Source: a virus | Lineage: Duplodnaviria > Caudoviricetes | IMG/VR virus record: IMGVR_UViG_3300039918_000021 | Location: 1-32,267 of that record | DNA: 32,267 bases | Strand: one strand, 5' to 3' | Part shown: positions 16,580-29,799 of the stretch, in pieces | Numbering within the stretch: the first letter of the stretch is position 1 | How the letters are laid out: each line of letters starts with the position of its first letter | Position numbers and translations under genes: made by a program | Notes under the pieces: generated by a model | The model's database searches: none | Told to the model about the DNA's origin: nothing | The model's input: only the letters and a program-made list of their open reading frames with translations

Positions 16580-16830
16580 CCCATATTATATTCGCGCCAG
16601 AACCGCAGAACCGGTCAAGAACCGCGCGCCGCCCGGCAAATGGCGTATTTCTCCCGTTTTCTTGATTGGGTTCTGAAGTTCTGTAGTTCTCGGTATCTTC
16701 CCTACACGCACGCATACGCACGCACACGCGCACATCACGCGTAGCGGTTTGGAACAGAACCGCAGAACCGTTGAATACCAATGTGTTGCTGGTTCTGTGC
16801 GTTCGTCGCTCCAGAACTCTAGAACCGCGC
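16580..16830. repeat. Iteron array, candidate replication origin
   Basis: Eleven AGAAC/GTTCT copies in alternating-orientation clusters, mostly 8 bp apart, around an alternating purine/pyrimidine tract (about 16703-16743); directly downstream of the helicase. Confidence 0.65.
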
Positions 16831-20128: not shown

Positions 20129-20425
20129 TTAACCGGCCACCGCGTTGATATACCAGACACCGGCCGGGAGCTCGTAATCCTGGGCGATGCCCGCCTTGAG
20201 CTTGATCCCGGTCGCCGCCGGTGCGACATAACCCGCCGCCTTGCTGGCGGAAATGCGCTGATCCTCATCGGCGATCAGCCGGATCAGGCTGGGGCCAGGG
20301 ATAGGGCCGGATTGCGCGCCGAGCGGCACGACCGTCGCGCCTGCAGTGGCATCAAGCAACGGGGTCAGCGGCAATGCGCCGTTGCGCAAGGTGCGCAGCG
20401 AAAACGCCGTGATGTTCAGCGACAT
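20129..20425 (-). CDS. Hypothetical beta-rich protein (98 aa)
   Basis: GGAG RBS; overlaps the stop of the upstream gene; protein-like composition. Confidence 0.7.
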   Translation of the reverse strand: MSLNITAFSLRTLRNGALPLTPLLDATAGATVVPLGAQSGPIPGPSLIRLIADEDQRISASKAAGYVAPAATGIKLKAGIAQDYELPAGVWYINAVAG

Positions 20426-20787
20426 AGGTCTTGCTCCATAGCAGCTCGGGCGAGGGTGCGGTTGGGGGTGCGATCGAACGGTTTGTCGAGCCAGCCGAGC
20501 GGGCCGCCGCGCGCCCAGTCATCCGGCAGCACCGCCCCGGCGGTTTCCCGCGCGATCATCGCGGCGGTCTCGTCCGAGGGCTCGACCTCGCCCGACAGCA
20601 GCCGGTCGAGTTGGTCAACCGACAGGCGCTTTCGGTTGACGATGCGCGGCGGGTTGATCGCGCCGGGCCGCATCGACTCCGCCGCCAACCACCAGGCCAG
20701 CCGATGCGCGCCGTTCGACGGGGGATGGCGCGGTGCGCGCTGCGCGAGGCCGATGGGAGCAGCGCCCAATGCCGTATCGACGCTCAC
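20416..20787 (-). CDS. Cro/YdaS-like HTH protein
   Basis: LSVDQLDRLLSGEVEPSDETAAMIARETAGAVLPDDW; GTGA-coupled start. Confidence 0.65.
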   Translation of the reverse strand: MSVDTALGAAPIGLAQRAPRHPPSNGAHRLAWWLAAESMRPGAINPPRIVNRKRLSVDQLDRLLSGEVEPSDETAAMIARETAGAVLPDDWARGGPLGWLDKPFDRTPNRTLARAAMEQDLCR

Positions 20788-21187: not shown

Positions 21188-21321
21188 CACGCACATCCGT
21201 CTAGGATTTTTCCTACGGAGCCATTTGACTTGTTGGAACGAAATGAGGAACAAATGCGGAACATAGGCGAATGATTCGCCAGGGGGCCCGCACATGACCG
21301 CGAACGTCTTGCCATTTCCAT
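21184..21321 (-). CDS. Small ORF after cro (45 aa, MEMARRSRSC...)
   Basis: TGATG overlap with the cro stop and GTGA overlap with the next gene; spans the SOS box, so it may only serve translational coupling. Confidence 0.35.
   Translation of the reverse strand: MEMARRSRSCAGPLANHSPMFRICSSFRSNKSNGSVGKILDGCAW
21225..21262 (+). promoter_or_regulatory. LexA (SOS) box GAAC-N7-GAAC overlapping a rightward promoter
   Basis: GAAC-AAATGCG-GAAC at 21248-21262 plus a third GAAC at 21236; TTGACT at 21225-21230 lies 17 nt upstream. GAAC-N7-GAAC is the established alphaproteobacterial LexA box. Confidence 0.75.
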
Positions 21322-21983
21322 CACGCCGCCTTCCGATCGACCCGGAGCGCCGGGAGGTCGTAAAAGTCGTTGGGCTGCGCGACGCCTTCGACGTACAGCT
21401 CAACCATGAAGGCGGGTCCGGGGATCATGTCGCCGTTTTTCCAGCGCAGCCACGTCATCCGCGTCGTCCCAAAATGCGCACCGGCCTCGGCATCGGTGAG
21501 CGCGCGCTCCCGTTGCCATTGCTTCAATTTTCCGGGAGCAGCCTTCATTCCAAAGCTGGTAACACTATGCGTTACAATTTGACAATCCCGTGTAACGCGA
21601 TACGTAGCTGCGTTGTGACCGCGACCGTTCTATCTTTCCTTCGTATGGAGGACATGCCGAACCGCATTCTCGAGCTGCGCCGTGCGGCCAAGCTGAGCCA
21701 GGAAGAGCTCGGCTTTCGCGTCGGCGTGTCCAAGATGCAGATATCGGGGATGGAACGCGGCAAGCGCGAACTGTCGCTCGGCATGATGCGTCGGCTGGCG
21801 GAAGCGCTGGACGTTTCCCCCGCCGACTTGCTGTGCGACGAGGACAACCCGATGCGCCTCGCCACCGACGAGCGCGCCTTGCTGTCGCGCTACCGCGCCG
21901 CCGATCCGGAACAGCAGCGCAATATTGAACGGGTCACCGAGGCCCTTGTGCCCTTCAACCAACGGCAGCGCGACGCGGCATAA
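21294..21983 (+). CDS. Putative SOS-inducible ORF antisense to cro, in frame with the repressor (229 aa long isoform)
   Basis: AGGGGG RBS 8 nt before ATG; protein-like start MTANVLPFPSRR; no stop before the cI stop. Confidence 0.4.
   Translation: MTANVLPFPSRRLPIDPERREVVKVVGLRDAFDVQLNHEGGSGDHVAVFPAQPRHPRRPKMRTGLGIGERALPLPLLQFSGSSLHSKAGNTMRYNLTIPCNAIRSCVVTATVLSFLRMEDMPNRILELRRAAKLSQEELGFRVGVSKMQISGMERGKRELSLGMMRRLAEALDVSPADLLCDEDNPMRLATDERALLSRYRAADPEQQRNIERVTEALVPFNQRQRDAA
21321..21548 (-). CDS. cro: Cro-like repressor
   Basis: LKQWQRERALTDAEAGAHFGTTRMTWLRWKNGDMIP HTH, VAQPNDFY tail; divergent from cI and first gene of the lytic operon. Confidence 0.85.
   Translation of the reverse strand: MKAAPGKLKQWQRERALTDAEAGAHFGTTRMTWLRWKNGDMIPGPAFMVELYVEGVAQPNDFYDLPALRVDRKAA
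21559..21608. promoter_or_regulatory. Operator/promoter region between cro and cI
   Basis: GTAAC-ACTATGC-GTTAC (21559-21575), degenerate GTAAC-GCGATAC-GTAGC (21592-21608), TTGACA (21579) and TTGTCA on the opposite strand. Confidence 0.8.
21645..21983 (+). CDS. cI: CI-like XRE repressor without S24 peptidase domain
   Basis: RILELRRAAKLSQEELGFRVGVSKMQISGMERGKRELS HTH; only about 110 aa. Start is 21645 (possibly leaderless, TATCTT 8 nt upstream) or 21654. Confidence 0.9.
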   Translation: MEDMPNRILELRRAAKLSQEELGFRVGVSKMQISGMERGKRELSLGMMRRLAEALDVSPADLLCDEDNPMRLATDERALLSRYRAADPEQQRNIERVTEALVPFNQRQRDAA

Positions 21984-22245: not shown

Positions 22246-22257
22246 CGCAATGCGCTG

Positions 22258-22310
22258 GTAACGCATAACGTTACTTTTTAGTTTGACACAGTAACGTTAT
22301 GCGTTACAAC
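22258..22310 (+). promoter_or_regulatory. Early promoter with two repressor operators
   Basis: GTAACGCATAACGTTAC (22258-22274) and its reverse complement (22291-22307) flank TTGACA (22283)-N16-TACAAC. Confidence 0.85.
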
Positions 22311-28497: not shown

Positions 28498-29799
28498 ATG
28501 AAAATCTCCGTTCCCGGTCTGGTCGCCAAGAAAACCGCCACGGGCACGCGCTATTATTGGACGCCATCGCCCACGCTCAGCAAGGCGGGATGGAAGAGCC
28601 AGGCGCTTGGCCGCGACATCGAGGCCGCGATCGCCGCAGCGAAGAAGCGCAACGAGGAAGTCGCCAACTGGCGCACCGGCGGTGCCAAACCGCGCGCCAT
28701 CGCCAAGTTCGTCGCGCGCGCCACCGTCGATCATGTCATCGCCCAGTATAAGGCCGATGGCTATCCGCGCGTGAAGAAGGGCGGCCGCTTTGGCGATGAC
28801 CGGTTCATCGGCGAAAACACCCGCATCGAATATGACAGCAAGTTGAAGGCGATTTCCGCCTGGGCAGGATCGGAGCCGATCGCGGCGATCACGCCAGACA
28901 ATGTCGCGGTGTTCCGCGATGCGCTGCTCGTCCCCAAAAAGGGTGTCGTTCGGCTCACTACGGCACATGGCACGCTGCGCGTGCTGCGAACGCTGTGCGC
29001 CTATGCCAAGAGCAAGAAATGGATCGAGACCAACCCGGCGCTTGATTTCGATTTGCCCGCTCCGCCACCGCGCCAGCAGGTGGCAAGTCCCGAGGCGCGT
29101 GCGGCCTTGCTCGCCGCTGCAGACGATGCCGGGGAGCCGAATATGGCGCTGGCCATGCTGTTGGGCTGGAAGATCGGCCAACGCGAAGGCGATTTGCTGC
29201 GCACGCTCCAGACGCAATATGTCGAAATCCCGTCCTACAAGCTCGATGCGGAGGTATTTGCCTCTTTGGCTGCCATGGCCCCCGACGGGCGCGTCATGGG
29301 CATTCGCCTGCGCCAGGGAAAGACGAGGGTCTGGATCGAGGTGCCCGTGGTCGCTGATGAGCGCACGCGCATCGAGGCCGCGATCGAGCGGGCGCGTGCG
29401 GTCGGCATTGCGACGCTCCTGTATGACGAGCGCGACAATAAGACGTGGACCAGCGGCGACAATAAGGAGCGCCGCAGCCGGGCGATGTATTTCCAGCGTC
29501 GCTTCGCCGAACTCCGCCAGAGCGCAGCGGACAAGGCAAAGCGCGACGGCCTTGCCGAATTGTCCGCCGATTTGCTGGATCTGCAATTCCGCGATTTCCG
29601 CCGCACCTGTGTCGTCGTGCTTGGAGAGCTGGGCTTGGCCGATCAACTGATCGCCGCGATCACCGGCCACAGTCTCGACGAAACGAAGCGCATTCTGGAG
29701 GTGTACATGCCGCGCACCACCGGCATGGCCGCGCGCGCGATCATGATGAGCGCCGAACGCGACGCGCGCAATGCCAAGCGCAACGGGGCGAGTGCGTGA
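28498..29799 (+). CDS. int: Tyrosine recombinase / phage integrase
   Basis: GQREGDL, RQGKT, FRDFRRT, ITGHS and catalytic Tyr in ILEVY; adjacent to a tRNA. Confidence 0.93.
   Translation: MKISVPGLVAKKTATGTRYYWTPSPTLSKAGWKSQALGRDIEAAIAAAKKRNEEVANWRTGGAKPRAIAKFVARATVDHVIAQYKADGYPRVKKGGRFGDDRFIGENTRIEYDSKLKAISAWAGSEPIAAITPDNVAVFRDALLVPKKGVVRLTTAHGTLRVLRTLCAYAKSKKWIETNPALDFDLPAPPPRQQVASPEARAALLAAADDAGEPNMALAMLLGWKIGQREGDLLRTLQTQYVEIPSYKLDAEVFASLAAMAPDGRVMGIRLRQGKTRVWIEVPVVADERTRIEAAIERARAVGIATLLYDERDNKTWTSGDNKERRSRAMYFQRRFAELRQSAADKAKRDGLAELSADLLDLQFRDFRRTCVVVLGELGLADQLIAAITGHSLDETKRILEVYMPRTTGMAARAIMMSAERDARNAKRNGASA

Follow-up and report, generated by a model that had tools for sequence, protein, structure and literature searches.

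Several phages combine a non-cleavable repressor with a product under the control of LexA, and in Gifsy, 186, and N15 these products are antirepressors, as stated in the accessible text of PMC3121763. In phi106, AimX occupies the C-terminal oligomerization domain of the repressor (available portion of bioRxiv 10.1101/2025.11.23.689978). Like the product predicted here, GfoA/GfhA (Gifsy), Tum (186), AntC (N15), and AimX (phi106) are gated by a host LexA box and paired with a non-cleavable repressor. These proteins are encoded by separate small genes, whereas the product of the locus described here would be a long isoform of the repressor itself, read antisense through cro and the operators. The closest precedent for such an isoform is GfhR* of the Salmonella prophage Gifsy-3, an N-terminally extended form of a non-cleavable repressor that accumulates after exposure to mitomycin C and whose role was not studied, according to the accessible text of PMC3121763. 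A search for later work on GfhR* returned this paper alone. GfhR* resembles the predicted long isoform in its N-terminal extension, and its accumulation after mitomycin C parallels the damage gating proposed here. Unlike the window, Gifsy-3 carries a separate LexA-controlled antirepressor; the accessible text of PMC3121763 reports no LexA box at the GfhR* promoter and gives neither the length of the extension nor an overlap with cro. Gifsy-1 of LT2 displayed no cro-antisense fusion of this kind.

Lambda and Mu offer partial parallels. In lambda, CII activates PRE, from which normal CI is produced, and we know of no description of a translated frame through cro for this promoter. PRE is located beyond cro, converges with PR, transcribes cI, and provides most of the CI made after infection (accessible text of PMC5001618). 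The promoter proposed here resembles PRE in geometry, being located beyond cro, convergent with PR, and reading into cI; it differs from PRE by a predicted LexA box and by a conserved open fusion predicting a longer product. Mu vir mutants are known for trans-targeting of the wild-type Mu repressor. The Mu repressor and the repressors of integration-dependent immunity systems each occur in two forms, and a tag of the ClpX type at one terminus decides what becomes of them (accessible texts of PMC10584840 and PMC3694055). These tags are C-terminal and not LexA gated, whereas the motif of the window is N-terminal and lies behind a predicted LexA box. According to a preliminary description of the locus, nothing similar is known to have been described. 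This holds for a LexA-gated cro-antisense fusion to CI, of which no description was found in the literature searched, mostly other than subscription papers and including the accessible part of PMC9437464, but it has to be qualified for GfhR*, which is close and was left unexplained. The locus is thus apparently an undescribed arrangement of the lysis-lysogeny switch, as a variant of LexA-linked phage control, and may provide the unexplained GfhR* band with a role open to testing.

The window, i.e., the whole stretch of 32,267 nucleotides analyzed, is a single virus record. It contains T7-like tail, portal, capsid, terminase, and primase genes and an integrase gene (28498-29796), beyond which lie host genes of the methionine-salvage type, indicating a temperate podophage flanked by host DNA. 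The host is probably a member of the Sphingomonadaceae, since the closest named Cro relatives (65-70%) were found in Sphingomonas and Stakelama genomes. Four public runs covering the switch stretch showed no mismatch to the window sequence, and the arrangement is therefore not an assembly error. One of 24 public runs is recorded as RNA; the four aligned ones consisted of contigs of flat depth, which bear on neither the strand nor the start or level of transcription. In a search for cultured relatives among 50,697 phage records, two matched CI and one matched Cro, every match being unannotated. The names cro, CI, PRM, PR, and PL are given here by position and analogy (Table 1).

Table 1. Features of the switch region, with positions in the window
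Feature	Position	Strand	Remark
-35 hexamer TTGACT of the inferred LexA-repressed promoter reading into cro	21225..21230	+	sequence
Predicted LexA box GAAC-N7-GAAC over the expected -10 position	21248..21262	.	extra half-site 21236-21239
Shine-Dalgarno-like sequence and ATG of the long frame	21280..21296	+	purine-rich ribosome-binding site
Nine-codon N-terminal motif MTANVLPFP, outside cro	21294..21320	+	conserved; synonymous codon changes
Predicted long CI isoform, 229 aa	21294..21983	+	107-aa extension plus native CI
Cro-like protein, 75 aa, ends in AA	21321..21548	-	weak PHROG hit; 118 relatives
Right operators GTAAC-N7-GTTAC and PRM-like promoter	21559..21608	.	read through by the long frame
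Native repressor CI, 122 aa, ends in AA	21615..21983	+	probably leaderless from GTG 21615
Left operators GTAAC-N7-GTTAC around the rightward early promoter	22258..22307	.	sites 22258, 22291

A single open reading frame of 229 codons extends from ATG 21294 to TAA 21983, running in the exact antisense register of cro, then through the operator region, and then in frame with an HTH_3 repressor. All the elements listed in the preliminary description were recovered, namely, the TTGACT hexamer, the GAAC-N7-GAAC box, the third half-site, the ribosome-binding site, the ATG, and the open frame, together with the in-frame fusion to a repressor devoid of an S24 peptidase domain, since Pfam detected only an HTH in CI. 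The GAAC half-sites at 21236, 21248, and 21259 are separated by 8 and then 7 nucleotides, and the interaction of the ribosome-binding site with the anti-Shine-Dalgarno sequence was estimated at -9.4 kcal/mol. The proposed SOS-boxed promoter calls for a qualification: TTGACT is present and the box covers the expected -10 position, but no consensus -10 hexamer was found, and a promoter scanner returned no site between 20900 and 22500. TTGAC recurs 12 to 39 nucleotides upstream of the box in 7 of the 9 boxed fused loci described below, and we infer a promoter ahead of the long frame from TTGAC combined with the LexA box. A hairpin or palindrome with a TAGGA...TCCTA core is located immediately upstream of the -35 hexamer (21197-21219); among the 67 loci compared below, this core recurs only in L025, where it lies between the box and the ATG.

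In the CI family, the N-terminus conforms to M-S/T-A-x-I/V-L-x-F and mostly begins 35 to 37 nucleotides after a TTGACA-type hexamer, a spacing that implies a leaderless cI mRNA. In the window, GTG 21615 opens this motif 36 nucleotides after TTGACA 21579, and native CI probably starts leaderless at this codon. With this start, the open frame initially credited with an extension of 117 codons would extend CI by 107 codons, and CI itself, described as a protein of about 110 residues, more likely contains 122. The AlphaFold model of CI (pLDDT, 90.7) comprises a confident HTH and a two-helix C-terminal domain, and the fold resembles those of SinR and of the phi106 repressor (TM, 0.55 for the latter); the ESM Atlas returned only generic HTH clusters, below 0.9. 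The putative right operators consist of a perfect site at 21559 and an imperfect site at 21592, the same TTGACA providing the -35 element of a PRM-like promoter whose -10 element is at about 21601; these operator and promoter roles are assigned by analogy with lambda. A terminator-like stem (22257-22275) accompanies the left operators. The cro gene is the first of the leftward replication/virion arm. Searches for a CII-type activator among the genes after cro yielded no family match. A second Cro-like HTH of weak similarity located downstream of cro (20419-20706, minus strand; probability, 28%) is a possible CII-like regulator.

The preliminary description cautioned that antisense frames are often open by chance at high GC content, and this caution proved justified. 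In the antisense register of cro, stops arise only from the TTA, CTA, and TCA codons of cro, all of which are rare, and 27 of the 43 unfused relatives had no stop in this register over the whole of cro. For the window, the probabilities were 0.64 for an open frame over cro, 0.23 for an open frame over the operator region, and 1/3 for the phase, i.e., about 0.05 jointly. One locus alone proves little; it is the relatives that carry the argument. Searches seeded with Cro and CI, including seeds that were themselves from fused loci, identified 261 loci. A filter for full-length short CI retained 113 loci, including the window, which formed 70 clusters at 90% CI identity. Three clusters were dropped (cro was not found in L089 and L092, and L054 is truncated), leaving 67 loci for analysis. 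The frame was fused to CI in 24 of these 67 switches, versus 3.1 expected, the maximum reached in 200,000 simulations being 13. Among in-phase loci, 24 of 31 had no stop in the CI frame over the operator region, versus 6 of 36 of those out of phase. Of the fused loci, 22 of 24 carried an in-frame ATG no more than 60 nucleotides past the cro stop, compared with 13 of 43 of the unfused loci. An ATG preceded by a Shine-Dalgarno sequence (-4 kcal/mol or better) just past the cro stop was found in 19/24 fused versus 3/43 unfused loci, whereas the other two frames of the fused loci provided 4 and 1 such starts. Fused loci were scattered across the CI tree (14 changes, no fewer than 7 being forced), and genus-level genome searches revealed no further loci. 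In pairs corrected for relatedness, fusion went with such a start in about 5 to 0 of 7 (median P, 0.06); for the LexA box, the P values were 0.25 (median) with fusion or coupling (see below) and 1 with fusion. These corrected associations had the same direction and were not significant, the pairs being few and the power low.

Were the arrangement due to chance, GC-rich codon usage would keep the antisense frame free of stops, and no meaning would attach to the box or the ATG. This would account for the open register of unfused relatives and for the joint probability computed for the window. It would also fit with search seeds that were partly fused and with evenly drawn genomes, in which only 3 of 15 switches were fused (2 others were coupled). 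It does not account for the frequency of a Shine-Dalgarno sequence and ATG in fused loci, for boxes that share one orientation and a narrow range of positions, for an N-terminal motif maintained with synonymous codon changes, or for the outcome of a blind scan for the cassette. We therefore regard chance as very improbable. Conservation of the box, the ATG, the open frame, and the fusion, which had been proposed as a check, was found in relatives with a co-occurrence far above chance, and the comparison of sequences indicates that the arrangement is real and under selection. Among long-repressor GC-rich switches (n = 22), 3 were fused, 1 of these with a Shine-Dalgarno sequence and ATG, and none was boxed; fusion with a Shine-Dalgarno sequence and ATG was found in 0 of 13 switches with S24-type GxSM repressors (P, 0.03). 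L046, whose Cro is a distant relative and whose repressor (173 aa) is of the non-S24 type, displays a fusion with a Shine-Dalgarno sequence and ATG, and a Rhodospirillaceae locus (L009) displays a fusion with a weak Shine-Dalgarno sequence, so that the design may extend beyond the Sphingomonadaceae.

GAAC-N7-GAAC is the LexA box of alphaproteobacteria, and the GTTC-N7-GTTC motif was present at 10 of 10 recA and lexA promoters of five Sphingomonadaceae genomes. Scored with a matrix built from 14 host recA/lexA sites, the window box reached 25.3 bits, versus 18.3 to 24.0 for these sites. The box thus matches the host motif and outscores all 14 host sites, in agreement with its initial identification as a LexA site. 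The exact box was present within 260 nucleotides of the cro stop in 9/24 fused loci, 3/43 unfused loci, and 8/816 background windows; it was absent from the other 15 of the 24 fused loci. All nine boxes of the fused loci were at -61 to -78 and in one orientation. In the window and in eight near-complete boxed fused records, of which up to 40 kb was read each, the box was the best LexA site of the record (9/9), as was also the case in L210. The only boxed open reading frame of the window is the one fused to CI, not a separate small gene.

Around other boxes (20 regions) and in 40 records, candidates for a separate boxed antirepressor gene were limited to single cases, a 57-aa gene in L219 and a 71-aa gene in L224, which belong to no shared family and have no Pfam hit. 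An S24 protein was encoded by only 1 of 41 family records (L219), a single case in which the fusion lacks an ATG and the separate boxed 57-aa gene is present. Unfused phages mostly carried no evident separate SOS-controlled antirepressor gene, so that mutual exclusion did not emerge from these records. In L268 (1600-2529; G445), an S24 repressor is divergent from a LexA-boxed 57-aa gene located 4.5 kb from cro, and the fusion has no ATG; a boxed 71-aa gene occupies a similar place in L267 (861-1073).

The start of the long frame was more conserved than its body. The N-terminal cassette starts 27 nucleotides beyond the cro stop in 8 loci, with a shorter variant in L005, and its motif, M-x-x-x-I/V-L/V-x-F-P, spans three CI clades with synonymous codon changes. 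Every locus carrying the motif was fused. A scan of viral contigs for the box, the ATG, F-P, and TCA, in which no CI or cro information was used, returned 26 matches. The 8 matches with a GC content of at least 0.63 were all cro-antisense-CI fusions of 227 to 245 aa, comprising 7 of the loci used to design the pattern and 1 new locus (L306); the 18 matches of lower GC content were unrelated. The motif was also found, without an exact box, in a further fused locus (L326). L313 and L306 share the same N-terminal cassette and a similar C-terminal half of Cro but have repressors of different clades, which suggests immunity swaps inside cro that kept the frame.

AlphaFold assigned a pLDDT below 50 to nearly all of residues 1 to 114 of the long form (alignment of 20 sequences), and the extension is predicted to be disordered, unless these low values reflect a failed prediction. 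Between the window and L001, Cro was 99% identical and the antisense peptide 76% identical, with third-position changes of 0.29 in cro and 0.35 in cI. Judged from these sequences, the extension body appears to drift freely and the nine N-terminal residues are conserved. A folded, sequence-specific extension was rejected, since the change at third positions of cro, relative to cI, showed no clear reduction in the 9 fused pairs compared with the 8 unfused ones. By eye, the motif of the long form resembles N-motif-1 of lambda O, TNTAKILNFGR, the degron criterion being polar-small-x-hydrophobic-hydrophobic-x-F at a free and unstructured N-terminus. N-motif-1 binds the open ClpX channel (accessible text of PMC12723719). 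The motif also resembles the N-terminal arm of native CI and is therefore no peculiarity of the long form. A ClpX tether of the SspB type was considered as well, but no alphaproteobacterial motif was found in the accessible parts of PMC12373786 and PMC8138137.

In five unfused loci (L006, L016, L106, L210, and L105), the antisense frame stops between -5 and +8 nucleotides of the native CI start (+8 in L006, -5 in L016, +1 in L210, and -5 in L106). L006, L016, and L210 retain the box and the ATG, and L106 retains the Shine-Dalgarno sequence and ATG; overall, an exact box and a strong Shine-Dalgarno sequence were each present in three of these five coupled loci. The arrangement fits translational coupling giving normal CI, although the overlapping frame could equally hinder CI. 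A slippery site for programmed frameshifting was not seen by eye in these loci. Fusion or coupling was observed in 12/12 boxed loci versus 17/55 others. These data argue for a PRE-like role, in which a LexA-gated promoter would establish or reinforce lysogeny upon SOS induction or early in infection, the frame would serve only to carry ribosomes to the leaderless cI, through fusion or coupling, and the product would repress. The position and geometry shared with lambda PRE are in agreement with this role, as are an extension body no more conserved than Cro imposes, a long N-terminus that recreates the native CI arm, and the production of GfhR* by Gifsy-3 despite its separate antirepressor. However, a PRE-like role would leave these phages without an evident damage inducer: CI is unable to cleave itself, and apart from this box, which ranks first among their LexA sites, strong ones are mostly lacking. 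In addition, fusion outnumbered coupling 19 to 3 among loci with a Shine-Dalgarno sequence and ATG, and the stop in the L016/L106 clade belongs to an element common to relatives lacking the ATG, so that coupling may be accidental in this clade. We consider the PRE-like role somewhat unlikely. If correct, it would mean that LexA gates the supply of repressor, the opposite of the textbook logic of SOS and prophages, and this would be about as surprising as an inducer.

We tentatively prefer to view the SOS-induced long CI isoform as a prophage antirepressor, a proposal that we place slightly below an even chance. The preference is based on the cassette being the best LexA input of phages whose repressor has no self-cleavage, on the predominance of fusion over coupling among loci with a start, and on the dominant-negative appearance of a disordered tail attached to an intact oligomerization domain. 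DNA damage would lead to LexA cleavage and open the promoter beyond cro. The resulting long mRNA would yield mainly the long form, because native cI is probably leaderless. Long CI would co-assemble with native CI via the C-terminal helices common to both, and its 107-residue tail, disordered and with a degron-like tip, would either spoil operator binding or pass the mixed oligomer to ClpXP, thereby releasing the lytic promoters. Promoter activity, translation, co-assembly, and the involvement of ClpXP are all presumed in this scheme. Against the antirepressor role, the promoter occupies the position of PRE and converges with PR, a geometry favoring lysogeny, and long CI, whose HTH is intact, might itself act as a repressor. 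The 15 fused loci devoid of an exact box, the five coupled loci, the similar arm of native CI, the nonsignificance of the corrected associations, and the scarcity of separate antirepressor genes in unfused phages also count against it. The direction of action, to induce or to repress, thus appears less firm than the arrangement itself. In a rather unlikely extension of this scheme, long CI would drag native CI to ClpXP by means of a degron tail, and the repressor, Cro, and the inducer would be encoded by overlapping frames of one locus in a widespread phage family. Many prophages have a non-cleavable repressor and no recognizable inducer. A start hidden past the end of cro, which would escape annotation, offers a searchable answer. 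The locus is also a rare example of a full-length antisense overlap for which selection is indicated by comparison, and it concerns the most thoroughly studied type of genetic switch.

The long protein may alternatively be a by-product marked for disposal. In this case, SOS transcription across the operators would shut PRM and dislodge CI, translation would serve only to prevent termination by the polymerase, and AA-ended CI would then decay. CI ends in AA in 38/67 loci and Cro in 53/67. The ssrA and CtrA tags also end in AA (accessible text of PMC8138137). Occlusion of the operators would account for these ends and for the unconstrained extension, covers fused and coupled loci alike (all 12 boxed loci), and has a parallel in the interference between such promoters measured in lambda (accessible text of PMC5001618). 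However, it does not require an in-frame fusion, yet in-phase fusion dominates and includes all the loci with the N-terminal motif; the same transcript would hinder PR too, and the excess of C on the antisense strand is no more than mild (C/G ratio of 1.10 in fused and 1.16 in unfused loci). We judge occlusion to be improbable.

Other motifs were noted in and around these switches. TTAA half-sites, which we take to be CtrA-like, were more common in fused (13/24) than in unfused (7/43) loci. Further GAAC-N7-GAAC matches located 4 to 5 kb from the switch were rejected, as they lay in tandem repeat arrays or inside genes. In the window, two opposed direct-repeat arrays of the AGAACCG type flank a CA/CG-rich tract (16590-16830), and tandem GAAC arrays located 4 to 5 kb to the left of cro in many relatives mimic SOS boxes; these arrays are likely origin or late-gene elements. 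Small genes for cysteine-rich, zinc-ribbon-like proteins were found beside LexA boxes in L404 (9543-9794; no Pfam hit), L264, L265, and L277. Finally, three unfused phages (G457, G461, and G475; loci L020, L198, and L200) carry LexA-like boxes at the rightward early promoter, a location that suggests direct co-repression of the early operon.
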